The notes under the pieces: model-generated | The model's database searches: none | What the model saw: the letters and a program-made list of their open reading frames with translations, nothing else | What the model was told of the DNA's origin: nothing | Assembly: GCA_963718915.1 (NCBI GenBank) | Contig: CAVRAI010000012.1 | Location: 16,305-48,304, forward strand | Length of the DNA: 32,000 nt | Direction: 5' to 3' | Source: an uncultured Chloroflexia bacterium | GTDB lineage: Bacteria; Chloroflexota; Ktedonobacteria; Ktedonobacterales; JADMIN01 | Shown: one piece after another, positions 11,041-30,794 of the stretch | How positions within the stretch are numbered: the first letter of the stretch is position 1 | Layout: every line of letters starts with the position of its first letter | Made by a program: the position numbers and the translations under genes

Positions 11041-11221
11041 GACAATCGTAATCCTGATGACCAATCTACCGCATATCTCCGCGCGATGCCAGCATGATAG
11101 CACACCGTACCCGGACGCAAGATGTGGGAAAGCTGTGGGCGCTCGTCATGGTCTGTACCCAGTTGTGTGGGCATACTTGTCCTCAGGTGGAACAGCGAAT
11201 TGTTACCGAAAGGAGCGGGGT

Positions 11222-13836: not shown

Positions 13837-14069
13837 GCCATTGTCCCCCTCTACCCACCAGAAAACCCACAGCCTTCCGGCGTTGTCGTCGTACGTTATC
13901 GCTTGAGAACCGGGAAATCTTCACGCTTCGACGCGGTTAGTGCAACGGACGGTGTTGCGTGGAACGCATCGGGATGATGCTGATGCTGCTGCCATCGCAG
14001 CCAAAGTAGCTAGAGTAGCCATGCGGGCACAGAGAGACGCCGTTGTGACTCAGTGCGAGTGGATTTGTT

Positions 14070-14110
14070 AAGATATATCGTTTTATAACGAAATATATCT
14101 TGGTCGTCAA
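14070..14110 (-). promoter_or_regulatory. sigma70-like promoter for the MFS gene overlapped by a 9-bp-arm inverted repeat
   Basis: Minus strand: TTGACG (14110-14105), 17 nt, TATAAA (14087-14082). Arms AAGATATAT (14070-14078) and ATATATCTT (14093-14101) bracket the -10 element. Confidence 0.55.
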
Positions 14111-14187
14111 GGGGCGCGGAAATTCGCTGTCGCTCGCATGGAGAGAGGCCAGCGTGTCTCAGCGCCTGATGGCGCTACACGATGACG

Positions 14188-14958
14188 CTACGATGAGCCT
14201 TCCTGTTGTAGCGCCATGGGAGCGGGATCCATCAGCGCATGGATAGCGAATGAGGTGAGCTGGTCGCGCGCGTGCTCCAGCGCCTGGGGCGACGAGAAAT
14301 CGACGCCGCCAAAGATCGACTCGTAGTTTGGGAGCGAGAGCAGGTGAATCAGCACCATGCTCTTCACATGCGCCATCGCCACGTAGGGATCGACTTCCTT
14401 TCGGATAAGACCCGCCGCCTGCGCCCGTCCGATGAACTCGGAGATGGGTTTGACCCAGACAGGACACACTTGTCCGCCGCCACGCTTCGCCTCGATGAGC
14501 GTGCCCCAACCTTCCGCCGCCTCCCAGGCCAATATCCGGCGGAGATGTGGATGCGCCACCAGATGATCGAAGTGCCAGCCCACAAACGTCTCAATGAACG
14601 AGCGCACGTGTCCGGCGTCCAGCGGCGATTCCGGGTTCCCTGCCGCCGCGAGCAGCATCTCTGTCCGCTGGAACTCTGATTCGTCGCGTTGCATGCAGAC
14701 GACCTCGCGATAGAGGCCCAGTTTGTCGCCGAAGTAGTGAAAGATCAACGCTTTGTTATAGCCCGCCGCCTCGGCGATGGCATCCACCCGCGCCCCATCG
14801 AAGCCGTCGCGGGCGAAGATCTCTTCCGCCGCGTTAAGGATGGCCTCGCGCGCTACGGGCGCCTCGCGTTCGCGCCGGTCGGCCCGCGCCACGCGGCGTT
14901 CGCGCGCGGAGAGCCGTTCGCTCCGCTGCTGCTCCCTGACATTCCCCTGCGCGGCCAT
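14188..14958 (-). CDS. TetR/AcrR-family transcriptional regulator
   Basis: REAILNAAEEIFARDGFDGARVDAIAEAAGYNKALIFHYFGDKLGLY is a TetR HTH. GGGGAGG RBS. Lies upstream of and co-directional with the MFS gene. Confidence 0.9.
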   Translation of the reverse strand: MAAQGNVREQQRSERLSARERRVARADRREREAPVAREAILNAAEEIFARDGFDGARVDAIAEAAGYNKALIFHYFGDKLGLYREVVCMQRDESEFQRTEMLLAAAGNPESPLDAGHVRSFIETFVGWHFDHLVAHPHLRRILAWEAAEGWGTLIEAKRGGGQVCPVWVKPISEFIGRAQAAGLIRKEVDPYVAMAHVKSMVLIHLLSLPNYESIFGGVDFSSPQALEHARDQLTSFAIHALMDPAPMALQQEGSS

Positions 14959-18182: not shown

Positions 18183-19474
18183 ATGCCACAACAAGTACGT
18201 GTTTTTGTCAGCCATCACCACAGCCCCACTGAGGATACATTCACAGGGTTGCTCGTAAGGGATTTGGAACGGGCGCAAGCAGATGTCTGGGTTGATAAGA
18301 ACGAGATACAACCTGGCGAGGATTTTCAAAGTAGAATCAACTCTGGATTATTAGGTCGACAGTACCTCGTCCTCGTGATGACCCCAGCGGCGTTAGCGTC
18401 GAAATGGGTGCGACAAGAAGTGGCAGCGGCAAATGCTCTCTGTAACAATGGTCAGATGAGAGGAATTATTCCCGTTATCGCAGAACCATGCAGCGAAAAC
18501 GACATACCACCGCTATGGGGCACATATCTTCGTCTGGATGCTACTAAAGACTATACTGCCGCAAGGGATACGCTCCTTCGTACCCTTGGATTACAGCTCC
18601 CTGTTGAACATGAACAGCCTGTGTTCTCATTTCGTTCCCAGGGAGGTATGAAACCGAACGAAGAGATTTGCGGCTGCAGAGTGGTTGAGCCTATCGGTAA
18701 TGGCGACATGGCTATCGTCTATAAGGCAGAACAGATACATGTGGGTAATCGTACGGTAGCCATCAAGATTGTCTATTGCAGCGACCCCAAATCCGTTCGC
18801 GGTTTCCAGCGTGAAGCGAGTATCCTTGCCTCTTTATCACATCCCAATATCGTCCATGTCTTCGATATGGCGTGCAGGGCGACTTCGTATACCTCGTCGT
18901 GGAGTTCATGACGGGCGGTGATCTGCGCAAATACCTCAAGCGCCAGGGCTTCCTGACCCCAGAGCGCGCCGTCGCGATTGCCCACGATGTCGCTCTCGGC
19001 CTTGGTTGTATCCATGATCACGGTATCGTTCACTGTAATGTCAAGCCCGAAGACATTCTCTTGAACGACTACGATGGACTGGCCAAGCTGTCCGACTTTG
19101 GCACCTGTGTATCAACTGACCATGACGAGATTGAGTATAGCGCCATTACCAGTATGTCGCTTGAAACTGTCCGATACTATGCCCCCGAACAAGCGCAGGG
19201 CAAGAGAGTGACGCCCGCCAGCGATATCTACATGTTGGGCATCGTGATGTATGAGATGCTCACGGGCACGGTGCCCTTCGACGGCAATACGCCGGTCGCA
19301 GTGGCGATGCGCCATATTCAGGATATCCCTGAGCCGCCTTCGCATTTGAACCCAGCGATTCCACACGAGTTGGAGTGGATCATCCTGCGCTGTCTCGAAA
19401 AAGATCCACGCAACCGCTATCTCAACGGTAACGAGCTTGTCAAGGCGCTCGATCAATATCAACAGGGGAGATAG
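18183..19474 (+). pseudogene. TIR domain - Ser/Thr protein kinase-like fusion, interrupted by a 1-nt frameshift at about 18866
   Basis: N-terminal TIR: VFVSHHHSPTEDTF...SKWVRQEV. Kinase: IGNGDMAIVYKA, VAIK, FQREASIL, HPNIVHVFD, then the frame shift, then YGVQGDFVYLVVEFMTGG, IVHCNVKPEDILL, SDFG, YYAPE. GGGAGG RBS. Track ORFs 18183-18911 and 18872-19474. Confidence 0.8.
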
Positions 19475-19622: not shown

Positions 19623-20291
19623 CTACTCCTCGCGGTTGATCGTCAGGTCGCGCAGGGTGATCGAGTAGTTCTCGCGCACCTCCGCCAGCAGGAAGCGCAG
19701 CGCCACCTCCGCGCCGAGCGCCACCACCAGCAGCACCAGATTGCGCGCCAGCGGATAGGCGCAGACATCCGGCGCGACGATATCGCCGGGGACACGGTAG
19801 CCCTCGTTCCAGTGGATCTCGCCGTAGTCGGTATGCATGCCAAGGTGCAGGCAGGGGCGTTCGAGGGTGGCGCAGGTGTCGGTGACGAGGCGGCGCGAGG
19901 CCGAGGTATCGAATGTATCGAGCGCAAGGTCGGCATTGCGCAGCAGCTTCGCGGCGTTACGCTCGGTCAGCGGCTGGCTTGCCACCACGAGTTCAACGCC
20001 GGTCGCGCGGTAGCAGCGGGCGCGTAGCGCATCCACCTTGAACGCGCCGATATCGCCCTCCTCGTAGCTCTGCGTGCCAAGGTTGTGCTGCTCGACGCGG
20101 TCGAAGTCGATCACTGTCAACTGGCGGACGCCCTGGCGTAGCAGGTGTTCGGCGAGATGCGAGCCAAGCGCGCCCGCACCACACAGGACAATGCGCGCCT
20201 CCGCCAGTCGCGCCAGCGCCTCGTCGCCGCGATAGAGCGCCTCGTGAATCAGCGGGCCATGCTGGTCGGGTCTATCGGGTCTATCAGGCAT
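19623..20291 (-). CDS. ThiF/MoeB/E1-like adenylyltransferase-fold protein (short form)
   Basis: RIVLCGAGALGSHLAEHLLRQGVRQLTVIDFDRVEQHNLGTQ is the Rossmann nucleotide-binding motif of the ThiF family. The start overlaps the upstream gene by 8 nt. Confidence 0.8.
   Translation of the reverse strand: MPDRPDRPDQHGPLIHEALYRGDEALARLAEARIVLCGAGALGSHLAEHLLRQGVRQLTVIDFDRVEQHNLGTQSYEEGDIGAFKVDALRARCYRATGVELVVASQPLTERNAAKLLRNADLALDTFDTSASRRLVTDTCATLERPCLHLGMHTDYGEIHWNEGYRVPGDIVAPDVCAYPLARNLVLLVVALGAEVALRFLLAEVRENYSITLRDLTINREE
19633..19649. repeat. 17-bp direct repeat, right copy (inside the 3' end of the E1-like gene)
   Basis: CGGTTGATCGTCAGGTC is identical to 17653-17669, 1980 bp away. Confidence 0.95.
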
Positions 20292-21066
20292 AGCGAGGCT
20301 CCCTCCGCCGGGCGAAGACCCACTGCGACGCGCCCTGAACGATGACCGTCACGATGATGGCCGCGACGAACGCGGGCAGGATTCCCGCCGGGACAATCAG
20401 TGTGCCCGCGACCAGAAAGAACGACGCGAACGAGAGCAGCCCCACCAGCAGCCCGCGCAGCAGCCGGAGCGCCGCCGCTGTTCCCGCCTGCGCTTGGGTG
20501 AAGGTGGCGAGCACCGTGCCAAAGATCGGAAACGGCGCCAGCAGCCCGGTGAGGTGCGGGCCAAGCTGAGGCGCGGCGCCAGTCAGCAGCAGCACGAAGA
20601 CCGTGGCGACCACCATCCGCGCGGGAATATCCCATATAGGCGGCGTCATAGCGACAGTATCTTTGACCGGGATACGCGGGAAGAGCGCCAGCGCCAGCGC
20701 CGCCACCACGACGCAGAGCGCGAATGCCAGCGCCAATGGGAGGATGGCCAGTTGCAGCAGCGCAGTCGCCGCGAGAAAGACGAGCCAGCTTGCGAGCAGC
20801 GCGCCGGGCCAGCGCCAGCGGAGAGCCGCCCAGGCATACGTCAGGCAGAAGATGGCCACTGAGATGGTGCCGAAGATGATGCCACGCGCGGTATCCGCCG
20901 CGAAGATTGTGCCGTTTTGCAGCGCGAGGATCAGCAGCACTGGGCCGGAGGTCAGTGGCAGCCCGACGAGCAGCCCGCTCACCGCCGGACCCCACCGCCG
21001 ACCCGCCACGCTCACCAGACCAATCAGCGAGGGCGTCAGCAACGCCTTGAGGAAGAAAAGACTCAT
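20284..21066 (-). CDS. polytopic membrane protein with two DUF3147-like halves
   Basis: MSLFFLKALLTPSLIGLVSVAGRRWGPAVSGLLVGLPLTSGP is repeated as ARMVVATVFVLLLTGAAPQLGPHLTGLLAPFPIFG. An alternative start lies at 21081. Confidence 0.65.
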   Translation of the reverse strand: MSLFFLKALLTPSLIGLVSVAGRRWGPAVSGLLVGLPLTSGPVLLILALQNGTIFAADTARGIIFGTISVAIFCLTYAWAALRWRWPGALLASWLVFLAATALLQLAILPLALAFALCVVVAALALALFPRIPVKDTVAMTPPIWDIPARMVVATVFVLLLTGAAPQLGPHLTGLLAPFPIFGTVLATFTQAQAGTAAALRLLRGLLVGLLSFASFFLVAGTLIVPAGILPAFVAAIIVTVIVQGASQWVFARRREPRYA

Positions 21067-21104
21067 GTTTCCAGTGTACATGTATCGCGCTAGCCCCGTC
21101 GCAT

Positions 21105-21479
21105 CTATGCCGCGGAACCCGCCGATTGACCGTGGGCGAAGAAAGCCAGGAACGCGACGACTCCAACCATCACAAGCAGGGTGAGGATACCAAGGAGAAA
21201 AGCGATCCAGGCGATGCGGCTCCCGCCGCTGCTATCCCTGAGCACCAGGCCAGCCAGGAAAGTAGCGAAGATTGGCAGCGGCCACTCGAAACAAAAGAAG
21301 ACCGTATAGATTGACCCGACGACGATATCGCTACCCGCGCCGGGGATGCGCGCCAGCGTCATGATCGCGTTGACGGCCACAGTCAGCGGCACGATGAGCG
21401 CGAGCGCTAATGCGATCCACGCGGCGACGCGCTGTCGTCTGGGCGACGCGACCGGCGCGGGATACATCTCCGATGTCAT
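21105..21479 (-). CDS. small membrane protein, unknown function
   Basis: MTSEMYPAPVASPRRQRVAAWIALALALIV... with 4 TM helices. The track ORF extends to 21572, which would overlap the upstream gene by 8 nt. Confidence 0.55.
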   Translation of the reverse strand: MTSEMYPAPVASPRRQRVAAWIALALALIVPLTVAVNAIMTLARIPGAGSDIVVGSIYTVFFCFEWPLPIFATFLAGLVLRDSSGGSRIAWIAFLLGILTLLVMVGVVAFLAFFAHGQSAGSAA

Positions 21480-21564
21480 GGCGCCCCACCCTTTCGTAGC
21501 GGATGAACCCTTGATCGCCGAACCATACAGACTATATGACACACACGCCCTGCCTGCCAGTCTA

Positions 21565-22425
21565 TTACTCATCGCCTTCTATCTCGTCGCCGTAGCGGGG
21601 GATGGGCTGGCCTGTCGCCTCGCGCATCACGCTGACCATGCTCGTCAGGTCGAAGCGGGCGTCCTGGCCGGAGAGGCAGATGCCCGCCGTCAGCACCGAG
21701 AGATCGCTCTTGCGCACCGTGCTGACACTGCGCTCGTCCCCGACCATGTAGGCGACGGTGTAGCTGTCGTCGCGCTCGGTGAAGGCGATCAGACGACCGC
21801 CAGCGTGCGCCAGCGCAGTGGCCAGACGTCCGACGATGCCCGCGCGCTCAGCCTCGGACACCAGCGTCCGCGCCCAGGCATAGGCCGCGCGCTCCTCGGC
21901 GGATAGTCCCGACTTGCGCAGATCTTCGGTCGGCGTTCCGGCATCGAGCGCCGCGCGCAGGTAGGTTGCCAGCGCCGGATTGCGCCGGTTGTCGCGTCGC
22001 TCGTACCAGAAGAAGTGGCCATCGAAGCGGGCAAACACCGTCTCGAAGGGCTGGATGCCTGCCTCAGCCAGCAGCACTGGCGCGGGACCGCTGAGCTTGA
22101 GGCCCTTCTCGCCCTGGCTGGCGGGCAGCGCGTACCACTGATGTCCTTCGCGCGCGACAACGATCAGCCGCAGCGCCGGGAAGAGCTTGAGGTAGGCGGC
22201 AATCTCCGCCAGTGTCGCCGGACGGATGAGTTGCGCCGTCTTCAATGTCTCTGGCCGCAGCACACCCCAGCCGGTGAAGCGCTTGCCCGTCACCCGCAGC
22301 GTGCAGACGATGCCCGCGATGCGCACGATGACCCCCCGCCCCGGTAGCACGGGCGCCAGCACCTCGCGCTGGAGGAAGTCGTTTTCGGCGGCCTCCAGCC
22401 GGTTGAGAATGTCATCGATGCCCAT
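21565..22425 (-). CDS. hypothetical protein, 286 aa, no recognisable domain
   Basis: AGGAGG is 9 nt upstream of ATG 22425. Coding-like composition. Sits between the vWA gene and the membrane genes in the same operon-like string. Confidence 0.7.
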   Translation of the reverse strand: MGIDDILNRLEAAENDFLQREVLAPVLPGRGVIVRIAGIVCTLRVTGKRFTGWGVLRPETLKTAQLIRPATLAEIAAYLKLFPALRLIVVAREGHQWYALPASQGEKGLKLSGPAPVLLAEAGIQPFETVFARFDGHFFWYERRDNRRNPALATYLRAALDAGTPTEDLRKSGLSAEERAAYAWARTLVSEAERAGIVGRLATALAHAGGRLIAFTERDDSYTVAYMVGDERSVSTVRKSDLSVLTAGICLSGQDARFDLTSMVSVMREATGQPIPRYGDEIEGDE

Positions 22426-22431
22426 AGCGGT

Positions 22432-23268
22432 TTACCTCCTGACCTCACCCCCATCCCCCTCTCCTGTGGGAGAGGGGGAGCCAGAGTGGAGCAGCCCACG
22501 CGCGCCCAGGCGGCTGATCGCAGCGGAGACGGCGGGACGATTGCTCGCCAGCCGCGTCGCCAACTCGTCGAGGCTGTCGTTGGGATGATCCCTCCGTGCT
22601 GCCAGTACCGTGCGGTCGAACGCCAGGTTGCCGAACTCCTCCACCAGAATCGCCTGAAGCGAGGCGATGGCGTCCTGGCCCTCGGATCGGTCGCGCCAGA
22701 TGGCGAAGAACTCACCGCCAGTCAGGTTGCTGAGCGCGCTGAACGACGACTCGACGCCACTGGTCAGCCCCAGGGCGTAGAACGTCACGCGCGCCTCCTC
22801 GGCTGCCGCCGTCACGCTCTCGATGGTCTCGCCACAGGGACACCCGTGTGGGAAGCCATCGCCACGTCCCCCGACGCCATGCGGTGGCGAGTCACCCACC
22901 AGCACCGCCAGCCGACGCGCGTGTGGCCGCCATGCCAGCTCGCGCACCGCCGCCAGCATACCATCCAGCACCGATTCCGGCCCATCGCCGCCGCCGTTGG
23001 CCGTCAGCCCGTTCAGCGTTGCGCGGGCGGCGTCGAGATTGGCGGTGAGGTCGTAGGCGCGGAAGGGCAGCGGATCCTGCGGCGGGTGGTCGCGGTACTC
23101 GACGATACCCAGCCGCAGGCTGACCTCATCCGCCAACAACAGCGCGTCGATCATGGCGATCATGCGCTGCTGCGCGCTGGCGATGAGGCCGGTCATGCTG
23201 CCGGTGGTGTCCACCACGAAGGCGAGATCGAGCGCAGACACCTCGTCAACGCTCATATCTCCGGTCAT
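22432..23268 (-). CDS. von Willebrand factor A (vWA) domain protein with C-terminal wHTH-like segment
   Basis: MIDAS motif VVDTTGSM, GGGDGPES, VLVGDSPPHG. C-terminal DELATRLASNRPAVSAAISRLGARGLL. The ATG overlaps the upstream stop (ATGA). Confidence 0.85.
   Translation of the reverse strand: MTGDMSVDEVSALDLAFVVDTTGSMTGLIASAQQRMIAMIDALLLADEVSLRLGIVEYRDHPPQDPLPFRAYDLTANLDAARATLNGLTANGGGDGPESVLDGMLAAVRELAWRPHARRLAVLVGDSPPHGVGGRGDGFPHGCPCGETIESVTAAAEEARVTFYALGLTSGVESSFSALSNLTGGEFFAIWRDRSEGQDAIASLQAILVEEFGNLAFDRTVLAARRDHPNDSLDELATRLASNRPAVSAAISRLGARGLLHSGSPSPTGEGDGGEVRR
22441..22486. repeat. REP-like palindromic element, copy 2 (inverted relative to copy 1)
   Basis: Contains the perfect hairpin CCCCCTCTCC-TGTG-GGAGAGGGGG. 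Its reverse complement aligns with 12193-12236. It supplies the last ~18 codons (SPSPTGEGDGGEVRR) of the vWA ORF. Confidence 0.7.
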
Positions 23269-24854
23269 GACGCCTTCCTTTCCGGCAGCGGGTACTCCAG
23301 AATCTCCATCAGCAGATCGACCATCGACGGCCGCTGGAGCAGCGGGATCAGGTTCGGTAGCGCGTAGTAGTCGCCGCTGAACGTGAAGACACTCGGCGCG
23401 ATGCCCAGGCCGGTGCAGGCGCGCTCCAGGATGTTGGAGGAATGCCCCACCTTCACCAGAATCACGTCGGGCCGGGTCTGCGTCTCCTCGCTGTAGGCCT
23501 TGTAGGCGTTGGCGAAGAGCGGCGCCTGGTTCTCACCCTCATCGGTGACGAGGATGAACTGCTCGACGCGCTGACCCTTGCGCCGCATCATCTCGATGGC
23601 CACGCCACACGACGTGCCGCCGCCCGCGGTGATGCCCGTCAGCGCCTTCTCCCACTCCGACAGAGACGCGCCACTGGCCTCGATGGGGTAGGCGATGGTG
23701 TCGAAGGCATAGGCGAAGAACTCCGCCTCGATGATGGACGAGATCATCGCGCCCAACTGACGACCTACCTCGATGGCGACATGCATGGATCCGCTCTTGT
23801 CCAGCAACATCGCCGTCGAGCGCGTGATGCGCCCCTTGGCCTTCACCTGCGCCTCGGTGATGGCATCCAGCTGCTCGGCCAGCTCGCCGGAGACGTTGGC
23901 CGCCTCGACCGCGACCTTCGCCTTGTAGGCGGAGACGCGCTTGTCGCTCTTGGCCGCCTCCAGCTTCGCCTCGATTAGCGCCTTGACGTCCTCGTTGTCG
24001 AACGCGCCACGCGCCTTGAGCGAGCCGATGTTGTTGATGACCTCCTGTGGGGTCATCACCTCAACCAGCGCCGCCAGCACCGTCGGCGACATCTGCTTGA
24101 CGAGCGAGGTCGCCACCCGGTACGGGATGTGATGCTCGACCAGTGCGCGCGCCTGCTCGGCGGGCGTCTCGGCCTGGCGGATAGCCCGCATCGCGGCGAA
24201 GACGCTGCCCTCCGGCGGCTCCTCGCCAAAAAGCACCGCCTGCGCCCGCCCGGTGGGGCGGATGTGCAGCCCAGCGTAGAGTCGCTTGATGGCCGCACGC
24301 GCATGCAGCACCGCCTGATCGAACTTCTCGACATGCGCCTCGCGCTCGCGCAGGTAGCGCTCGATCTCGGTGCGCATCGAACGTGGGACGTTGACGAAGA
24401 GGCCGACCTGCTCGATCTTCGTCTCCATCGGCACGGCAGGCTTGCGGGATGCCTTACGACCGCGCCGACCAGTGGTCCCGGCCGCCGGAGTGGCAGCCGG
24501 CTCAGGCGCGCTTGCCACTGTGGCTGTTGCATCCGCCACGGGCACACGCCGCTTCACCTGGTGGCCCTTAATGAAGTCCACCACGCGGGCAAGCTGGTAC
24601 GGTGGCAGGCGACGCATCAGCGCCAGGCCAACGTCGCGATGCCCCTCCGCCTGCGAGAGGCAGAGGCAGATCACAAACATCTCCTGGTGGTCGCGCACCT
24701 CGCCGTGGTCGGCATACCACGCGGCCAGCCGCACGTAGAAGCGCGGATCCCGCGTCAGGATTTCCTGGTGCTGAGGATACAATGCGGTCAGGTTGCGGTG
24801 TGGCGTCGTCAACAGCGTGTTGAGCAGGTCCAGCCGCAGGTCACGCTCGGTCAT
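23265..24854 (-). CDS. Ro60/Rsr-like protein (TROVE-like helical N-domain plus C-terminal vWA)
   Basis: 529 aa. DPRFYVRLAAWYADHGEVRDHQEMFVICLCLS...RRLPPYQLARVVDFIKG resembles the TROVE pattern of Ro60. C-terminal vWA motifs LLDKSGSM, TAGGGTSCG, FILVTDEGEN and PDVILVKVG parallel Ro60 DVSASM, AGGTDC, FTDNET and AKLIVCGM. GGAAGGGAGGG RBS. Confidence 0.6.
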   Translation of the reverse strand: MTERDLRLDLLNTLLTTPHRNLTALYPQHQEILTRDPRFYVRLAAWYADHGEVRDHQEMFVICLCLSQAEGHRDVGLALMRRLPPYQLARVVDFIKGHQVKRRVPVADATATVASAPEPAATPAAGTTGRRGRKASRKPAVPMETKIEQVGLFVNVPRSMRTEIERYLREREAHVEKFDQAVLHARAAIKRLYAGLHIRPTGRAQAVLFGEEPPEGSVFAAMRAIRQAETPAEQARALVEHHIPYRVATSLVKQMSPTVLAALVEVMTPQEVINNIGSLKARGAFDNEDVKALIEAKLEAAKSDKRVSAYKAKVAVEAANVSGELAEQLDAITEAQVKAKGRITRSTAMLLDKSGSMHVAIEVGRQLGAMISSIIEAEFFAYAFDTIAYPIEASGASLSEWEKALTGITAGGGTSCGVAIEMMRRKGQRVEQFILVTDEGENQAPLFANAYKAYSEETQTRPDVILVKVGHSSNILERACTGLGIAPSVFTFSGDYYALPNLIPLLQRPSMVDLLMEILEYPLPERKAS

Positions 24855-25137: not shown

Positions 25138-25377
25138 TCACCCGAAGACAGCCTCCGGGCGGACGGTGATGTTGCCGTTCTCGTGGCGCTCGACCACGTA
25201 CGGCGCGAATCGGCCAACCGCTACGTCGAAGTAGTTCGCCAGGGCGCCCAGCACCTCGGCCTCGCTGGCATCCGGCGCGAGATGGAGCGCGCTCAGCGGC
25301 ATCTGGCGGCTCACACCCTCGAAGCGGACGTGCAGCATCGGCTCGGTCGGCTCGATACGCTGGATTGGCTCTGCCAT
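25138..25377 (-). CDS. small (79 aa) protein ending in Gly; possible beta-grasp/ubiquitin-like fold (speculative)
   Basis: GGAGGAGG is 6 nt before ATG 25377. MAEPIQRIEPTEPMLHVRFEGVSRQMPLSALHLAPDASEAEVLGALANYFDVAVGRFAPYVVERHENGNITVRPEAVFG*. The predicted strand-strand-helix-strand-strand pattern was judged by eye. Confidence 0.65.
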   Translation of the reverse strand: MAEPIQRIEPTEPMLHVRFEGVSRQMPLSALHLAPDASEAEVLGALANYFDVAVGRFAPYVVERHENGNITVRPEAVFG

Positions 25378-25670
25378 ACGATTCCTCCTCCTTCCGCGAA
25401 GTCGCGCGGAAAAACAAAATGGACGTGAGAGCGGCTGCCCCCACGTCCGACACCGCGCACACGCGCTCATCCTCCCGTGGGATGTGGCAGACCGACAGCC
25501 AGGCTATTGAGCGGGCACGAATAGCTATGCGCGTCCGCTATTGCTGGTTGTCGCCAGATGATGGATTTGGCCATCGTCATCTGTTCCACAGTCGGTTTCC
25601 TTGTCATCCATTGGGTACTGGCGCGTCTCGCCACGGCGCCGGAGGAATCGCTATCGCCCTCCGGCTGCAT

Positions 25671-25713
25671 CAGCTAGCACACCACAGCAGGCGATTGTCA
25701 AGGGCAATTTCAT
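25671..25713 (-). promoter_or_regulatory. promoter-like module homologous to the RNA-cluster promoter P2, pointing toward the small gene and Ro-like cluster
   Basis: Minus strand reads ATGAAATTGCCCTTGACA-19 nt-(GTGC)TAGCTG. The 15 nt ATGAAATTGCCCTTG are identical to 28813-28827 and GTGCTAG is shared. The -35 is a perfect TTGACA but the spacer and -10 are suboptimal. Confidence 0.4.
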
Positions 25714-25940
25714 CCGCTCGGAAAAGTGGGAGTGGCTATTGAAGCAGGTAGAGGGAAAAATCGGGGACATGGAAGAGATTCGATGCCCGCAGTTTTACCC
25801 GCTCGATTCACGCTTTACAGGCAGTAGCCAAGCTCTTTGTCTATGCCTGGAACCGCCGCCAACTCTTCCGTCGCCAGCATCCCCAGTACCCGGTCCAGGT
25901 CTTCCAATTCATCTCCCCGTAACAATAGCCACTCCCTTTT

Positions 25941-26600
25941 TTAAGCCGTTTCACTGAAGACCGGCATCAATATCTCATCTACCAGCAACTCCAACTGGCG
26001 CGCGTCAATCGGGGTCCGGTGCAGCAGATATTGCATACGAATCAGGTCGAACGGCAGGCGTAGCGCGAACTCGCTCACATCCTTGAGCTTCTCGCTGCGC
26101 ACCCTGGCAAAGTCCAATACTTTCCGTATCGCGAGGATGTTTTTCTTGACCGCGTTCTGGCCGATTGCCACCATCGTCGGGCTATTCTGGCTCATCTCGA
26201 AGAGCATCGCATTCATGATTTCCGGGCCAACTTCAATGTAGAAGCGTTGATACAGCGTCAGCATGCACAGCAAATCGCCGCGCAGGCTCCCTGTATCCTC
26301 GATCATGTCAATGAAATCGCCGCCCAGCGCGTGCAGCAACTTCTCCACCACGATGTCGTGGATCAGCTCGAGCGGCGTCTCCCAGCGGCGATAGAGCACG
26401 GTGCGGCTCGTCTGCGCTGCCTGTGCGATCCTCTGGAACGTCAGGTTCGTGTACCCTTCGGTCTTGATGATGTCCTCGACTGCCTGATAGATGCTCTCGG
26501 TCAGCGTGTCGCCACGCCTGCGCGTGTCTCTGCGTTCAGCCTTCTCGATTTTGCTAGCTCTCGCAGATTTATCGACCTTGATAGCCGTCTTGCTCACCAT
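25941..26600 (-). CDS. TetR/AcrR-family transcriptional regulator
   Basis: GGAGG is 8 nt before ATG 26600. IYQAVEDIIKTEGYTNLTFQRIAQAAQTSRTVLYRRWETPLELI is a TetR HTH. GC is visibly lower than the surroundings. Confidence 0.9.
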   Translation of the reverse strand: MVSKTAIKVDKSARASKIEKAERRDTRRRGDTLTESIYQAVEDIIKTEGYTNLTFQRIAQAAQTSRTVLYRRWETPLELIHDIVVEKLLHALGGDFIDMIEDTGSLRGDLLCMLTLYQRFYIEVGPEIMNAMLFEMSQNSPTMVAIGQNAVKKNILAIRKVLDFARVRSEKLKDVSEFALRLPFDLIRMQYLLHRTPIDARQLELLVDEILMPVFSETA

Positions 26601-26665
26601 AGGATGTGCCTCCTCACCATACTCTGCCCTCATTTTGCCACATCTCTGCCACTTTTGGGTACATC

Positions 26666-26728
26666 TTGCACTTTATTTCGTGGTGAAGTACAATGTGTAC
26701 CGTAATAGGGTACAATATGTACCGTAAT
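26666..26728 (+). promoter_or_regulatory. MFS promoter with two tandem palindromic TetR-type operators
   Basis: TTGCAC (26666-26671), 17 nt, TACAAT (26689-26694). Direct repeat of GTACAATGTGTACCGTAAT (26688-26706) and GTACAATATGTACCGTAAT (26710-26728), each containing a GTACA-N3-TGTAC palindrome. Confidence 0.65.
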
Positions 26729-26742
26729 GAGGCGAGGCAAGC

Positions 26743-28260
26743 ATGGTAAACACAACAAACACGCAAGAGCAAACAAACATGCAGGAGCAACAAGAAAAGG
26801 CCATCCCTGGCCACATCATCGTGTTGGCGTTGATTATGGTGCTGGGGGCGGTCCCGCCGATGCTGGACACCACCATCGTCAACATCGCCGTCAACGACCT
26901 CTCCCAGCAGTTTAACGTTCCGTTCGTCACGACGCAGTGGGTGGTGACGGGCTATGTCCTGGCGCTGGCCATCGCCGTGCCGTTTTCCGGCTGGCTCATC
27001 CAAAAGTTCGACGGCAAGCGCATCTTTATGAGCACGCTGGGTCTGTTCCTGGTCGGCAGCCTGTTCTCCGGCCTGTCATGGAACATCGAGAGTCTGATCG
27101 CGTTTCGCGTGGTCCAGGGCTTCGCGTCCGGCCTGCTGATTCCGACGCTGACGACGCTGCTGGTGCAGCTCGCGGGCAGCAATAAGCTCGGGCGGCTGAT
27201 GTCTATCGTGAGCGTCCCTATCGTCTTGGGGCCAATCGTGGGGCCGGTCATCGGCGGGCTGATCTTGCAACGGCTGACGTGGCACTGGCTGTTCTTCGTC
27301 AATCTGCCCATCGGCGCGGTGGCCCTTATACTGATGCAGTGGAAGCTGCCTAAATTCGCGCCCACGAATACTGCCGCGAAGCTCGACGTGCTCGGCATCG
27401 CGCTGCTGGCGCTGATCTCTGGCATGTTCATCTTCGGCGTGACCGAGATCAGGGGAACCGACACGCAGACGCTCGGCCTCGGCGCACTCATCGCGGGCGC
27501 CGTGGCGACGCTGTTGTACCTGCTCTACGCCTGGCGCCAGGCGGGCCACGCGCTGATCCCGCTGGGCCTGTTCCGCTCGCGGAACTTCAGCGCGGCGTTC
27601 GCCTCGCTCTTCCTGGCGGGCTTTGCCACCAACGGGCCGATGCTGCTACTCCCAGTCTTTTTCCAGAATGTGCGCGGGCTGGACGCCATCACGGCGGCGC
27701 TCTGGCTGATTCCGCAGGGCGTGGGCATGCTGCTGACGCGCTCGCCCATCGGCAGGATGACCGATAGGTTCGGCGCGCGGCTGGTGGTGCTCCCGGCCAT
27801 TGCGATTATCATCGTCGGCACGCTGCCCTTTGCCTTCTTCGACGCGACGACGCCGACCTGGCTCATCTGGCTCGCCCTGCTTGTGCGCGGCATAGGTATT
27901 GGCGGCTTCACCATCCCGGTGATGACCGATGCCTATGTGGGCATGCCGAAGCCACAAATTCCGCAGGTCAGTATCGCTACGCGCATCATCAATAATGTGG
28001 GCGCGGCCTTTGGCTCCGCGCTGCTGGCCACGGTTGTCACGAATGCCTTCGCCGGGCCGAGCGCCGGGCTGGCGGGCCTCACCAGCGCCTACCACGCTGG
28101 CTTTCTCTTCAGCCTCGCCTTCACGGCCATCGGTATCCTCCCCGCCGCCTTCCTCACCAACAGACTCGCAACGTCGAAGGCAGCGTCGAAGGCGGATGCG
28201 AAGCCGGATGCCATGGAAGCGATGCTGGAGGAGGAGAACGCAGCCTACAGCGTCGAGTAA
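26743..28260 (+). CDS. MFS transporter, DHA2 (EmrB/QacA-like) family
   Basis: 505 aa. MLDTTIVNIAVNDL, GWLIQKFDGKR and FRVVQGFASGLLIP motifs. Divergent from the TetR gene. Confidence 0.9.
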   Translation: MVNTTNTQEQTNMQEQQEKAIPGHIIVLALIMVLGAVPPMLDTTIVNIAVNDLSQQFNVPFVTTQWVVTGYVLALAIAVPFSGWLIQKFDGKRIFMSTLGLFLVGSLFSGLSWNIESLIAFRVVQGFASGLLIPTLTTLLVQLAGSNKLGRLMSIVSVPIVLGPIVGPVIGGLILQRLTWHWLFFVNLPIGAVALILMQWKLPKFAPTNTAAKLDVLGIALLALISGMFIFGVTEIRGTDTQTLGLGALIAGAVATLLYLLYAWRQAGHALIPLGLFRSRNFSAAFASLFLAGFATNGPMLLLPVFFQNVRGLDAITAALWLIPQGVGMLLTRSPIGRMTDRFGARLVVLPAIAIIIVGTLPFAFFDATTPTWLIWLALLVRGIGIGGFTIPVMTDAYVGMPKPQIPQVSIATRIINNVGAAFGSALLATVVTNAFAGPSAGLAGLTSAYHAGFLFSLAFTAIGILPAAFLTNRLATSKAASKADAKPDAMEAMLEEENAAYSVE

Positions 28261-28332
28261 GGCTAGCGCGTTCCATGTCCCCGATGCTATCACCGACCCG
28301 CTTCTATAGCCACGCCCGGAAAAGTCGCGCCC

Positions 28333-28361
28333 TTGCGGATAGACCCATCATGTGCTAGACT
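28333..28361 (+). promoter_or_regulatory. promoter P1 of the first RNA triplet (A-X1-B)
   Basis: TTGCGG (28333-28338), 17 nt, extended -10 TGC-TAGACT (28356-28361). Same layout as P2, 492 bp downstream. Confidence 0.55.
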
Positions 28362-28373
28362 GCCTGACTGATA

Positions 28374-28500
28374 GAGTTGTCTGCGCCCTCACCTGGGATG
28401 CATACATGCGCGGGTTCGATTCCCGCTACGCCCACCACGCGGGCGTATAGTTCAATGGTAGAACACAACACTCAGCCTCGCGAACTCGCGCGGATGACTC
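28374..28500 (+). ncRNA. tRNA-mimic (YrlA/Y-RNA-like) module A
   Basis: 13-bp basal helix 28374-28386/28488-28500 (3 G-U pairs). T-arm GCGGG-TTCGATT-CCCGC (28410-28426). Acceptor TACGCCC / loop ACCACGC / GGGCGTA. Then TA and D-arm GTTC-AATGGTA-GAAC. Confidence 0.6.
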
Positions 28501-28508
28501 TTTGCCAA

Positions 28509-28621
28509 CATGTCCCGTATCCTCACAGCGGTTGCATACAAACGGGCTGAACACCCACTGGTTTTTGCAACCAGTTTCCCGCAAGGGATTCTCTTCGCGA
28601 CCGAAACTTGTGCGGGACATG
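28509..28621 (+). ncRNA. variant module X1 (same family, non-tRNA hairpins of tRNA-like dimensions)
   Basis: 9-bp closing helix CATGTCCCG/CGGGACATG. Hairpins GGG-CTGAACA-CCC, ACTGGTT-TTTGC-AACCAGT (7 bp) and TCCC-GCAA-GGGA. Shares the 5' CCTCAC..GCATACA and 3' CTTCGCGA..AACT motifs. Confidence 0.5.
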
Positions 28622-28652
28622 GCATAATAGCATGTGGCATCAATCGTGATTT

Positions 28653-28801
28653 GGCCGGGCGCGTCCTCACCAGCGTAGCCTACATTCAATCCTCAAACTG
28701 GAATCGCGGGTTCGACTCCCGCCGCCCCTTCGGGAGCGTAGTCTAGTGGCCCAGGACGCCAGTACCTGAATACACTGCTTCGCGAACTCGCGCGCTCGGC
28801 C
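28653..28801 (+). ncRNA. tRNA-mimic (YrlA/Y-RNA-like) module B
   Basis: 11-bp basal helix GGCCGGGCGCG/CGCGCTCGGCC. Anticodon-stem-like ACTGG/CCAGT. T-arm GCGGG-TTCGACT-CCCGC. Acceptor capped by TTCG. D-arm GTCT-AGTGGCCCA-GGAC. Confidence 0.6.
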
Positions 28802-28824
28802 CATCGCGTGTCATGAAATTGCCC

Positions 28825-28853
28825 TTGCGCAAGCGTGCGCCATGTGCTAGACT
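28825..28853 (+). promoter_or_regulatory. promoter P2 of the second RNA triplet (C-X2-D)
   Basis: TTGCGC (28825-28830), 17 nt, TGC-TAGACT (28848-28853). The downstream CATGTGCTAGACTGCCTGACTG is identical to P1. Confidence 0.55.
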
Positions 28854-28865
28854 GCCTGACTGGTG

Positions 28866-29002
28866 GAGTCGTCCGCGCCCCCACGAGGGAAGCATACAAC
28901 CTACAGTTGCGGGTGCAAATCCCGTCGCCTCGACCGCTTCGAGGCGTAGCTCAATAGCAGAGCATCGGCAGTAACTGCTTCGCAAACTTGCGCGGACGAC
29001 TC
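28866..29002 (+). ncRNA. tRNA-mimic (YrlA/Y-RNA-like) module C
   Basis: Perfect 13-bp basal helix GAGTCGTCCGCGC/GCGCGGACGACTC. T-arm GCGGG-TGCAAAT-CCCGT. Acceptor CGCCTCG / loop ACCGCTT / CGAGGCG. D-arm GCTC-AATAGCA-GAGC. Confidence 0.6.
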
Positions 29003-29041
29003 ATCCCAACCGATATCATTCGCACAGATGATCCATGGCGG

Positions 29042-29160
29042 CATGCCCCGTATCCTCACAACGGTTGCGTACAAACTGGGCTTGAAACCCCCAAACTGGC
29101 TGTAAACCAGTTCCCTGATAAGGGATCTCACATCTGCGACCGAAACTTGTGCGGGGCATG
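29042..29160 (+). ncRNA. variant module X2
   Basis: Closing helix CATGCCCCG/CGGGGCATG carries a compensatory T-A to C-G change relative to X1. Hairpins GGG-CTTGAAA-CCC, AACTGG-CTGTAAA-CCAGTT and CCCT-GATA-AGGG. Confidence 0.5.
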
Positions 29161-29180
29161 GCTTTCGCGAACAACGTCGG

Positions 29181-29302
29181 CGCTGGGCGCGCCCTCAACT
29201 GGGAAGCGTACATACACTGCGGGTTCGACTCCCGTCGTCTCCACCTTTTGGGGATGCTCACTGGTCACGTATTTTCCGCTTCTCGAACTTGCGCGTCCGG
29301 CG
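29181..29302 (+). ncRNA. tRNA-mimic module D (D-arm degenerate)
   Basis: 11-bp basal helix CGCTGGGCGCG/CGCGTCCGGCG (2 G-U pairs). T-arm GCGGG-TTCGACT-CCCGT. Acceptor CGTCTCC / loop ACCTTTT / GGGGATG. Confidence 0.5.
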
Positions 29303-29343
29303 CGTCCGCGTTTCCTCCTCCCGTATCCTCGCCCCGCGGTGAA

Positions 29344-29373
29344 TTGACGCCCCAGACGCCGCGCTCCTATACT
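29344..29373 (+). promoter_or_regulatory. sigma70-like promoter of the downstream PEGA-like gene
   Basis: TTGACG (29344-29349), 18 nt, TATACT (29368-29373), about 47 nt upstream of ATG 29421. Confidence 0.55.
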
Positions 29374-29420
29374 ACCCTGTGAGCCGCTGAACACCCTGGC
29401 CGACAGGAAAGCTACCGCCG

Positions 29421-30794
29421 ATGGAGATGGATGACGATTTCGAGCTAGAAGTCACCAATCTGGATACCGGCGAAACGATACGCCACCCACTTGCCCACAA
29501 CGCGCCCGCTGAGCCGGGACGTGATGATAACAACGATGCTAACGATGACAACGATGACAACGACGATGGCGACGAGCTGACGCCCGACCCATCCAGGCCG
29601 GGGCGCCGCAATCGTCTGCGGGCGGCCATCGTTGCTGGTGTCGTGTTGCTGGCGGTTGCGCTGGTCATCGCGACCAATCCGGCTGCGAACTCGTCGCTCT
29701 ATACCGTCTTTCGCTTTCCGACGCCCGTGCCCTCGCCCACTCCGCTGCCCGGTGGCGACATTGTTTACCTTGGCCGGGCAGCCCCGTGGGGCAGTGTCAC
29801 CATCGACGGCAAGAAGTCCGCGTTCACCAATCCAGGCACGACCATCTCGTGGATCAAGCTCCCTCGCGGCCGCCATACCATCGCGGTCATACAGACGCCA
29901 TTTCCCGCGCTGCACTGCACTATCTCTATGCCAGCCCGCCTGAGCGACACCTGCCCGCTCTTCTCGCCTATCGACAACCAGGGCGAGCAAATTGGCGCCG
30001 GACCGAACTTTCCCGGCGGCGCGCGTTTCGTTGACCTGGGCGCGCGTTTTAGCCTGCTGCCACGAGACGCCCAGGATGCGCTGGTGGCGGCGGTCAAAGC
30101 CGAACTGACGCAGCCGAGCACGCCAATGACACTCTATCCCGGCGACCACTATCTCCGCGATGACGGTACATTAGCCGTGGCGGATACCACGCTCCAGGCG
30201 ACCTTCATCCCAACGCTTCTGCTGCCCGCCCCGGAAATCCCGTCGGATAGCTCGTCGTGCATCTCGTTCTGCGATGTCTCTGGCGTAGACGTGGGAGGCA
30301 ATGCCACCTGGAATATCATCGTCTCGATGTTGGGAAGCTGGCATGTTGCCACCCCCGACGGTCAGGTGCTGACGGAAAGCTCGCCGATGTACGTCAGCGA
30401 TCCGCTGTATGAGGCCTTTTCGGGATCGATGCAGGTCACGATGAGCCTGCTCTGGACGGGGAGATGGCAGGTGAGCGCACAGAACGGCTTTGGCGGCGCA
30501 TGGTCTCCGACCTGCCAGACCGCGGAGACGATGACGAGCGCCAATCTGGGGAAGAATCAACTCACCATCCTGGGCATGAATACTGAGTATGGGAGCACGG
30601 CTGAACAGGGTTGTGTCGTCGAAATCACGCCCAACAATCCGAATGCCAACAGCCCCATCGACCTCCTCTATCGTTTCGGTGTGCTGCTCGCCGCCAACGA
30701 TATCGCCCATCGCACGTTTCCATCGCTCCCGCGGGCATCGGCAGCCGAGCGGATCGCGGCGCAACGGCTTCTCACGCAGTCCTATCCCCCCTGA
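29421..30794 (+). CDS. single-pass membrane protein with acidic N-terminal tail and PEGA-like extracytoplasmic domain
   Basis: 457 aa. DDNNDANDDNDDNDDGDE low-complexity stretch. TM LRAAIVAGVVLLAVALVIA. APWGSVTIDGKK...LPRGRHTIAV is PEGA-like. Conserved Cys pattern shared with the next gene. Confidence 0.75.
   Translation: MEMDDDFELEVTNLDTGETIRHPLAHNAPAEPGRDDNNDANDDNDDNDDGDELTPDPSRPGRRNRLRAAIVAGVVLLAVALVIATNPAANSSLYTVFRFPTPVPSPTPLPGGDIVYLGRAAPWGSVTIDGKKSAFTNPGTTISWIKLPRGRHTIAVIQTPFPALHCTISMPARLSDTCPLFSPIDNQGEQIGAGPNFPGGARFVDLGARFSLLPRDAQDALVAAVKAELTQPSTPMTLYPGDHYLRDDGTLAVADTTLQATFIPTLLLPAPEIPSDSSSCISFCDVSGVDVGGNATWNIIVSMLGSWHVATPDGQVLTESSPMYVSDPLYEAFSGSMQVTMSLLWTGRWQVSAQNGFGGAWSPTCQTAETMTSANLGKNQLTILGMNTEYGSTAEQGCVVEITPNNPNANSPIDLLYRFGVLLAANDIAHRTFPSLPRASAAERIAAQRLLTQSYPP

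Follow-up and report, generated by a model that had tools for sequence, protein, structure and literature searches.

Tandem RNA modules with a common handle and tRNA-shaped heads, linked to a protein of predicted Ro60 fold, in an uncultured Chloroflexia bacterium

A 32,000-nucleotide stretch of the genome of an uncultured Chloroflexia bacterium from the Ktedonobacterales (contig CAVRAI010000012.1, positions 16,305 to 48,304; referred to as the window hereafter) contains a gene-free block of about 1 kb, which by direct reading of positions 28100–29600 holds six tandem modules on the + strand between 28374 and 29302. We consider it probable that this block represents six small non-coding RNA genes of a previously unrecorded family that follows the logic of Y RNAs and is linked to a Ro60-fold protein encoded in the same window. 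The array would consist of two duplicated units, each made up of a promoter and three modules (P1-A-X1-B and P2-C-X2-D), in which a constant handle carries a variable head, namely a permuted tRNA mimic in A, B and C, a tmRNA-like structure in D and a degenerate one in X1 and X2. Coordinates and scores of all features are collected in Table 1.

The six consecutive + strand modules had been proposed in an initial annotation made from the DNA letters alone, and our reading agrees with their positions, the ends of X1 and X2 now being set at 28623 and 29162. Folding pairs the 5' and 3' ends of each module in a closing helix of 12–13 bp, in line with the GC-rich helix described earlier at the RNA ends. 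Compared to shuffled controls, the folds of the + strand reach z-scores of −2.7 to −5.5, whereas the − strand yields −0.9 to −4.3 and is weaker in six out of six cases. When the basal helices of A and C are compared, their three differences result in U-G, G-U and U-G pairs on the + strand, which would be A-C mismatches on the other strand, just as had been noted.

The 150 best homologous modules, which stem from about ten phyla and were aligned by fitting them to the model, form standard pairs in 93.4 % of the pair-by-sequence cells, compared to only 35–48 % in a control with the pairing partners slid by 1–3 columns. Changes on both sides were found in 36 of the 37 pairs (1,430 cells), and none of 500 shuffles reached the observed pairing values. 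As this alignment had been fitted to the model, RNAalifold was also given 20 modules of at least eight lineages in a plain MAFFT alignment without any fitting. Unaided, it recovered basal helix and helix 2 as well as T-arm and acceptor stem, with compensatory changes in 24 of 33 pairs. Basal helices and elbow elements are thus conserved and covarying among homologues and, together with the better z-scores of the + strand, bear out the earlier claim that the modules are structured RNAs whose + strand fold is selected.

A covariance model built from modules A–D (R1) and run without filters on the 32-kb window recovers exactly the six modules, while nothing else exceeds about 14 bits save a 25-bit reverse-strand echo of module C. 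Pairwise identities of 70 % for A and C, 81 % for X1 and X2 and 60 % for B and D fit the duplication of a three-module unit, and the direct repeat D3 (58 nt, 86 % identity, 492-nt spacing) spans the regions upstream of A and C. The promoter-plus-triplet duplication of 2 × 492 bp put forward initially therefore stands as far as this repeat and its spacing are concerned, and both promoter-like elements have conserved counterparts: TTGCRN-N17-TGnTAGACT is kept before the homologous modules of the related loci L001 (two copies) and L003, with the sequence farther upstream diverging. A generic scan for sigma-70 promoters and terminators, however, called neither P1 nor P2 and found no terminators. 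P1 and P2 would each drive one module triplet. Behind module D lies an X-type 5' handle remnant whose matching 3' half was not found and which is probably the leftover of a seventh module. ARAGORN detected no tRNA and no tmRNA gene in the window, as had been expected for intact tRNAs, Rfam gave no match in the window at the gathering threshold and no tRNA match (RF00005) even at permissive thresholds, and a blastn search of the array against phage and plasmid collections returned no match either.

In the handle common to all six modules, an asymmetric loop separates the terminal helix from a second one. On its 5' side, the basal helix is followed in the window modules by the loop CCUCAC, the second helix and then (G)CAUACA; on its 3' side, GCUUC...GAACU(C/U) precedes the closing strand. 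X1 and X2 have a second helix of different sequence, retain only the 3'-side loop (G)AAACUU and carry the 3' motif CCGAAACUUG in place of CTTCGCGAACTCGCGCG, so the single 3' motif initially ascribed to all modules does not extend to these two. Across the family, the handle signature reads CGYRC-CC..AC ... AAGC-UACA // GCUU ... ACUU-GYRCG. Invariance in 144–150 of the 150 modules extends to the inner CGYRC/GYRCG, to both loop sequences (CC..AC and ACUU), to helix 2 (AAGC/GCUU) and to the UACA behind it (UACA, ACU and CC..AC in 148–150), while the outer helix covaries freely, and this combination suggests a site of protein binding or tertiary contact. We also considered a kink-turn for the internal loop and rejected it on inspection, as the tandem G.A pairs cannot form.

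The heads of A, B and C present a T-arm, a capped acceptor-type stem, UA and a 4-bp D-arm, which is the order of a circularly permuted tRNA. Their T-loops are of the UUCGANU type in A and B and read UGCAAAU in C; the acceptor stem has 7 bp in A (loop ACCACGC) and C (loop ACCGCUU), and 6 bp with a bulge and a UUCG cap in B. All three elements had originally been assigned to module D as well, but its head combines a T-arm and a 7-bp stem without any D-stem and thereby looks like the tRNA-like domain of tmRNA. The orthologue of D at L001 6446–6577 keeps the acceptor GGGGAUG/C(G/A)UCUCC with the G3.U70 pair, the loop ACCU and the missing D-stem, and scores 26.6 bits with the tmRNA model of Rfam. 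G3.U70 is the identity pair of alanine tRNA. The heads of X1 and X2 fold into three small hairpins, a T-like one of 3–4 bp (GGG-CUGAACA-CCC), a stem of 6–7 bp and one of the GNRA type, represented in X1 by GGG-CUGAACA-CCC, a 7-bp hairpin and UCCC-GCAA-GGGA; X-type handle and hairpins are kept in seven copies from the window, L001 and L003.

Among 100 permuted heads from the whole family, the UA linker is present in 79 and the T-loop matches UUCGANU in 59 and UUCRANU in 78, while the acceptor loop starts with ACC in 13 and with ACCA in 6. The ACC loops, regarded as unusual at first, have a precedent in the YrlA RNA of M. smegmatis (PMC4201824). In other phyla the same handle carries tRNA-like bodies that are not permuted and consist of an acceptor-like stem of 5 bp (CAUAC/GUAUG), D-arm, anticodon arm and T-arm. 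These non-permuted bodies are called tRNA by both ARAGORN and Rfam, and many of them have anticodons that are unusual for bacteria (UUA, AUU, ACA, ACC, AUG, AGG).

The candidate protein partner is the 529-aa product of the gene at 23265–24854, which the initial annotation had described as a Ro60-like gene 3.5 kb away from the array. This assignment holds by predicted fold, but not by a TROVE match in sequence: the protein has no match in Pfam (even at E up to 10, TROVE PF05731 included), NCBIfam, PADLOC or, by phmmer, among PDB sequences. In a Foldseek search of the PDB with an AlphaFold2 model (mean pLDDT 79, built from 30 homologues), the top 13 structures were Ro60, Rsr or TROVE proteins (E 4e-10 to 6e-8, TM 0.55–0.66, 12–15 % identity), including human and Xenopus Ro60, D. 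radiodurans Rsr and the Ro60 of Thermus phage phiLo. The alignments run over the full length (~550 columns), and isolated vWA domains rank only below them. The vWA part had a weak PHROGs match, to a family that bears the annotation RNA-binding protein, and the distant family member P0321 passes the Pfam model vWA_Ro60 with 28.7 bits at a cut-off of 27.7. More than 2,500 homologues were found, all of them unannotated and without Pfam domains; in a library of 1.8 billion proteins the family amounts to 1,366 clusters at 50 % identity (E up to 0.001).

Relatives of the Ro-like protein, taken from one genome per species, gave 74 genome loci, and eight viral loci bring the set to 82. The genome loci span Chloroflexota, Abditibacteriota, Planctomycetota, Cyanobacteria, Myxococcota, Bacteroidota, Acidobacteriota, Spirochaetota and the sulfur bacteria Parabeggiatoa and Thiomargarita. 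Candidate culturable carriers are Zavarzinella formosa DSM 19928 (L015), Sulfidibacter corallicola M133 (L042), Abditibacteriota IAD-21 (L022/L023), Kovacikia minuta CCNUW1 (L097) and Laspinema sp. D2d (L030). Searched with the covariance model, the 74 genome loci yield 186 matches (E up to 1), with cross-phylum scores of up to 88 bits, and modules are present in at least 58 of these loci. Six tandem copies had been thought unusual, but tandem arrays are common in the family, with one to seven modules per array among the best 150 of the 186 matches. In nearly all loci, modules and Ro-like gene share a strand. As to position, 30 loci have modules upstream of the gene at a distance of up to 1.5 kb, 34 between a small open reading frame (ORF) and the Ro-like gene, and 10 directly after the ThiF gene, the last of the cassette. 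The RNA modules are hence genomically linked to one family of Ro60-fold proteins.

The Ro-like protein is also encoded on IMG/VR contigs of 97–390 kb (L075–L082), where four of the eight viral loci carry modules, and protein and modules occur together in a 595-kb uncultured phage (L096, LR756511.1) and on the 1.2-Mb plasmid pA of the cyanobacterium Kovacikia minuta (L097). Cassette, modules and tRNA genes on contigs of huge phages and on cyanobacterial plasmids indicate that the system is mobile. A Dolichospermum plasmid (NZ_CP051207.1) carries the Ro-like cassette as well. Furthermore, many loci contain arrays of 13–33 ordinary tRNA genes, all on the same strand, that run up to the Ro-like gene and have handle modules scattered among them, for example on plasmid pA. 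When viral contigs were scanned for exact matches to the 5' handle signature, only one of 13 matches was confirmed by the covariance model, showing that the 5' signature alone is not specific.

In the window, the Ro-like gene belongs to a six-gene operon on the − strand (19623–24854), which also encodes a vWA protein, a 286-aa protein (u286), two lineage-specific ORFs of 155 and 305 aa and a ThiF/E1-like enzyme. The model of u286 (pLDDT 84) gave weak Foldseek matches to S1, exosome-cap and eIF5A beta-barrel RNA-binding folds, whereas the ThiF protein resembles E1 folds of the Uba4/MoeB/TcdA type. By tblastn, the 286-aa protein is present in 38 and ThiF in 36 genome loci, and both in eight of eight viral loci; they are missing from cyanobacterial and Bacteroidota loci. 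Directly upstream of the Ro-like gene, alignment by synteny revealed an ORF of 79 aa, which the ORF list had shown only inside a 110-aa ORF (25138–25470). Of the 82 loci, 56 have it in front of the Ro-like gene and in the same orientation, among them cyanobacterial ones and seven of the eight viral contigs. Its product terminates in an invariant ...RPEAV(F/Y)G, ending exactly at the glycine in 52 of 55 cases. Pfam gave no match for it, and the profile similarity to uL23 is borderline (E 0.014). Its size, residue pattern and terminal glycine suggest that it may be a ubiquitin-like substrate of the E1-like enzyme of the cassette. Upstream of the 79-aa ORF, the non-coding region 25381–25727 is largely conserved with L001, most strongly at 25381–25510 and 25655–25716, and contains the hairpin CCGCG-AAGT-CGCGG beside the ribosome-binding site. 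No handle module was detected in it, and it may be a 5' untranslated region or regulatory element.

By analogy with Ro60/Rsr–Y RNA complexes, we propose that the handle would dock to the Ro60-fold protein in the way Y RNA stems dock to Ro60, and that the tRNA-shaped heads would recruit or occupy factors that recognise tRNA. Candidate partners of the heads are RNase P, CCA-adding and modification enzymes as well as the S1/OB-like and E1-like proteins of the cassette. The outcome would be alternative ribonucleoprotein particles that serve RNA surveillance or repair, probably in phage–host or mobile-element conflict. For the heads of A, C and D with their 7-bp acceptors and ACC(A) loops, we predict RNase P cleavage and CCA maturation into two-piece RNAs, owing to the precedent of M. 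smegmatis YrlA (PMC4201824).

Several points weigh against this proposal. The resemblance of the 529-aa protein to Ro60 is one of predicted fold and not of sequence family, and a profile of the family searched against PDB sequences reaches TROVE proteins only at a non-significant E of 1.2. The motif GNCGAAN0-1G, which is thought to contact Rsr in YrlA RNAs (PMC4201824), has no regular-expression match in the six modules or in 28301–29400 of the + strand, and CGAA appears in the 3' handle of only 18 of the 150 family modules. The handle might instead be bound by another protein of the cassette, as the true binder could be the weakly uL23-like 79-aa protein or the S1/OB-like 286-aa protein. In the window, the array lies on the strand opposite to the Ro-like gene and 3.5 kb away from it. 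This divergent arrangement is otherwise found in L001, L003 and L027 only, and the distance results from a TetR–MFS insertion present in this genome alone, since the array of the relatives L001, L003 and L019 starts about 0.8 kb from the gene. Moreover, 24 of the 82 Ro-like loci have no module among the 150 best matches, which were drawn from genome loci only, so that the 24 include all eight viral loci, four of which do carry modules; many of the remaining ones are incomplete. Finally, the main covariation count comes from the model-fitted alignment.

The only serious rival takes the handle as a leader–trailer stem that guides the nucleolytic release of the heads. The heads themselves would then be the product, as two-piece and maybe aminoacylated tRNA-like RNAs or, in other phyla, as tRNAs with odd anticodons, and the Ro-like protein would be a neighbour or act on the released species. 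We grant this a small but real chance, as elsewhere the same handle encloses the non-permuted bodies called tRNA by ARAGORN and Rfam, modules are interspersed in long tRNA arrays such as that of Kovacikia plasmid pA, and acceptor stems of 7 bp occur together with ACC(A) loops in A, C and D, the last of which also has G3.U70. Processing stems, however, usually keep their structure and not some 20 invariant nucleotides across phyla. Permuted heads without an anticodon arm cannot decode, only 13 of 100 of them have a loop starting with ACC, and the X-type heads, which are not tRNA-like, keep the handle most strictly. In addition, handle and Ro-like gene are found together even at sites without neighbouring tRNA genes, of which the window is one.

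Six selected RNA genes also account better for the block than three explanations to which we attach very little weight. The heads do look like halves of tRNAs, tandem tRNA genes likewise place a T-arm ahead of a D-arm (PMC4201824), and relatives of the cassette adjoin real tRNA arrays, but debris of a former array, with T-arm and D-arm fragments adjoining by chance, would be expected to show intergenic spacers and not acceptor strands joined by a short loop. This alternative, raised in the initial annotation, is contradicted by a handle that closes every module with compensatory changes across about ten phyla, by the strand-specific G-U pairs and by the lack of intact or partial anticodon arms (ARAGORN), and we give it hardly any credence. 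DNA-level repeats, meaning palindromes, miniature inverted-repeat transposable elements or integration and recombination sites acting as DNA, are highly improbable: inverted repeats bound each module and the cassette is mobile between phages, plasmids and many phyla, yet folding is strand-asymmetric, with G-U pairs that the opposite strand would show as A-C mismatches, covariation extends to the tRNA-like hairpins inside the modules, the orientation relative to the Ro-like gene is fixed in nearly all loci, and the window shows neither target-site duplications nor further copies. Scarcely conceivable, too, is a cis-regulatory leader, T-box-like or attenuator, of the coding sequence 29421–30794, which lies directly downstream of the array on the same strand, an order kept in L001 and L003. 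That coding sequence is confined to the closest relatives, whereas modules occur without it in all other phyla, a separate promoter-like site stands between the two, and six autonomous closed modules fit no known leader.

As for the surroundings, the site between array and coding sequence is sigma-70-like (29344–29373, + strand; TTGACG, 18-nt spacer, TATACT, 10 of 12 matches). The 457-aa protein encoded at 29421–30794 has an acidic N-terminus and no Pfam match, and follows the array only in L001 and L003. Two proteins of the type found in conflict systems are encoded farther away, a TIR-domain protein with a protein-kinase fragment (18183–18911, +) and an HTH–NB-ARC/AAA–TPR protein of the STAND type (9070–11103, −), and a second TetR/MFS pair is located at 12238–14958.

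Table 1. Position, strand and properties of the features discussed in the text (R1, covariance model from modules A–D; YrlA, Rfam model RF02553).
Feature	Position	Strand	Description	Scores and evidence
P1, promoter-like	28333–28361	+	TTGCGG 28333–28338, 17-nt spacer, TGc-TAGACT (−10 at 28356–28361); 12 nt before module A	
Module A	28374–28500	+	handle + permuted tRNA-like head	fold z −3.59; R1 134.3 bits; YrlA 34.8 bits, E 1.5e-5
Module A, T-arm	28410–28426	+	GCGGG-TTCGATT-CCCGC	direct reading
Module A, acceptor hairpin	28427–28447	+	TACGCCC-ACCACGC-GGGCGTA, 7 bp	direct reading
Module A, TA	28448–28449	+	linker	direct reading
Module A, D-arm	28450–28464	+	GTTC-AATGGTA-GAAC	direct reading
Module X1	28509–28623	+	handle + degenerate head	fold z −5.22; R1 27.0 bits, via handle only
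Module B	28653–28801	+	handle + permuted tRNA-like head; UUCG-capped acceptor; D-arm GUCU/GGAC; closing stem CUGG/CCAG	fold z −2.71; R1 110.1 bits; YrlA 27.2 bits, full length
P2, promoter-like	28825–28853	+	TTGCGC, 17-nt spacer, TGc-TAGACT; duplicate of P1	within repeat D3
Module C	28866–29002	+	handle + permuted tRNA-like head; perfect 13-bp basal helix (inverted repeat I4); acceptor CGCCUCG-ACCGCUU-CGAGGCG; D-arm GCUC/GAGC	fold z −5.49; R1 144.6 bits; YrlA 28.7 bits
Module X2	29042–29162	+	X1 paralogue, 81 % identity	fold z −4.84; R1 42.4 bits
Module D	29181–29302	+	handle + T-arm + acceptor GGGGAUG/CGUCUCC with G3.U70; loop ACCUUUU; D-stem absent	fold z −4.44; R1 127.6 bits; YrlA 15.3 bits
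X-type 5' handle remnant	29319–29332	+	TCCCGTATCCTC	direct repeat D8, identical to X1 handle segment
ThiF/E1-like adenylating enzyme	19623–20291	−		Pfam
286-aa protein (u286)	21565–22425	−	predicted S1/OB-like fold	
vWA protein	22432–23268	−	MarR-like tail	Pfam
Ro60-fold protein gene	23265–24854	−	529 aa; helical ring + vWA domain, DxSGS (DKSGS) MIDAS motif	predicted fold
79-aa ORF	25138–25377	−	strong Shine-Dalgarno; directly upstream of Ro-like gene; ends ...NITVRPEAVFG-stop	synteny alignment
TetR + MFS insertion	25728–28317	unspecified	TetR 25941–26633, MFS 26743–28260	Pfam; flanks contiguous in L001, L003, L019
Non-permuted bodies	L040 6889–7235; L031 6030–6169, 7729–7865; L014 2320–2464, 2870–3020; L046 9336–9475		handle with tRNA-like body in normal order	ARAGORN, Rfam
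tRNA-array loci	L030 4412–9438; L046 4416–9440; L097 5393–9409; L062 6371–8785; L064; L043; L036; L075		tRNA genes ending at the Ro-like gene	

Going further, the window might be one copy of a widespread, mobile and undescribed RNA–protein system that acts on the tRNA pool, a reading we regard as rather unlikely. Its parts would be the Ro60-fold ring, the 79-aa protein, the S1/OB-like protein, the E1/ThiF-like enzyme and swappable tRNA-shaped RNAs on one handle, with heads that may be permuted, tmRNA-like, non-permuted with odd anticodons or degenerate. Such RNAs could act as decoys or sensors for tRNA-targeting toxins, or the particles could form a platform for quality control and repair of acquired tRNA arrays, and huge phages and megaplasmids would carry the system for phage–host conflict. 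At its boldest, this reading has the heads undergo maturation by RNase P and CCA addition and then become charged. The charge could be an amino acid, D having the alanine pair G3.U70, or else the small protein, which the E1-like enzyme could attach through the protein's C-terminal glycine to form a protein–RNA conjugate.

What is known about bacterial Ro60 and Y RNAs rests on few organisms and on genome surveys that depend on TROVE annotation (PMC4201824). The locus described here points to a second clade of Ro60-fold proteins that sequence searches do not see and that would have an RNA family of its own, with a different, near-invariant docking signature, several RNAs per locus and swappable heads including both circular permutations of tRNA. 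This would offer a natural experiment on how a Ro-type ring reads RNA and on the purpose of the tRNA-shaped module, and it would connect Ro-type particles with tRNA arrays spread by horizontal transfer as well as with an E1-like enzyme. The literature we searched makes neither connection and does not relate Ro60/TROVE to ThiF, tRNA arrays or multi-copy Y RNA arrays, although an earlier description elsewhere is possible. Handle signature and covariance model would allow these RNAs to be annotated, none of which is currently called by Rfam.

Among known systems, two-piece tmRNA (RF04321) shares the order T-arm, acceptor 3' strand, ACC(A), linker and acceptor 5' strand, and module D additionally has G3.U70 and no D-stem. 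The Rfam model tmRNA_permuted scores 22.7 bits on A and 22.2 bits on D at a threshold of 47, covering T-arm and acceptor only, and the tmRNA model gives D a sub-threshold 17.6 bits. A tmRNA reading was rejected on account of these scores, of the missing mRNA-like domain or tag frame and of the absence of any ARAGORN tmRNA call; permuted tRNA genes were rejected for lack of an anticodon arm. The L-arrays, long tRNA gene arrays acquired horizontally (PMC8421152), resemble those loci of cyanobacteria, Bacteroidota, a megaplasmid and huge phages in which the Ro-like gene and modules end arrays of 13–33 tRNA genes, unlike the window, which has no tRNA genes. The paper describing them mentions neither Ro60, TROVE, ThiF nor tRNA-like RNAs (PMC8421152).

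Closer in kind are the Ro60/Rsr–Y RNA–PNPase complex (RYPER) and the Ro60 of phage phiLo with its RNAs Yrl1 and Yrl2 (PMC12135203), as in both a HEAT-repeat ring with a vWA domain is found beside small RNAs. In these systems, the RNA stem docks to the protein and the distal module recruits a partner (PMC12135203); the cassette described here brings candidate partners of its own, namely the S1/OB-like, E1-like and 79-aa proteins. The published Yrls were identified by their CGAA motif (PMC12135203), which the array family lacks. M. smegmatis YrlA is the sole published YrlA with a 7-bp acceptor stem; RNase P cleaves it both in vivo and in vitro, and it acquires CCA (PMC4201824). A, C and D fit its combination of a 7-bp acceptor on a 5-bp T-stem and a loop starting with a discriminator-like base and C(C). 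Module A encodes ACCA outright, whereas B, X1 and X2 are without such features.

The nearest relative in architecture is YrlA itself, defined by Chen et al. in 2014 through a tRNA-like module, GNCGAAN0-1G near the 5' end, Rsr binding and a location on the same strand as a Ro60 orthologue within 4 kb (PMC4201824). Their survey was confined to genomes with an annotated TROVE protein and yielded 355 RNAs in 276 genomes, about 1.3 each, after cases with a T-arm followed by a D-arm that arose from tandem tRNA genes had been discarded as false positives (PMC4201824). At permissive thresholds, YrlA (RF02553) is the only significant Rfam family, matching the T-arm, acceptor and D-arm of the modules; the scores in the window (Table 1) have to be read against a threshold of 69 bits, homologues in L001, L005 and L010 score 32–38 bits, and none of nine further loci reaches 69. 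The permuted tRNA-like domain typical of YrlA is found in A, B and C, while D has no D-stem and X1 and X2 are degenerate. YrlA RNAs are also marked by tRNA-type modifications and by binding to Ro60/Rsr in vivo. With 115–149 nt, a long end stem and a conserved segment beside an internal loop, the modules agree with the general definition of Y RNAs (80–150 nt).

The array RNAs and YrlA have in common a size of about 115–150 nt, ends paired in a long stem, a permuted tRNA mimic at the distal side and an occurrence in phages as well. The gene near the array RNAs is of the Ro60 type by predicted fold and, in the window, lies on the opposite strand, whereas in other phyla it is adjacent to the modules and on their strand. 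They differ in the Rfam scores of 15–38 versus 69 bits with a match restricted to the head, in an invariant handle signature that replaces GNCGAAN0-1G, in a partner protein without TROVE sequence match, in copy numbers reaching 6–8 per locus compared to the roughly 1.3 of Chen et al. (PMC4201824) and in a handle that also bears non-permuted tRNA-like and non-tRNA heads. The initial description as a YrlA/Y-RNA-like array consequently holds for the architecture, but not for strict membership, with at most 35 of 69 bits in the window and no GNCGAAN0-1G. In architecture and context the array RNAs resemble Y RNAs of the YrlA type, standing beside, rather than within, YrlA as it has been defined.

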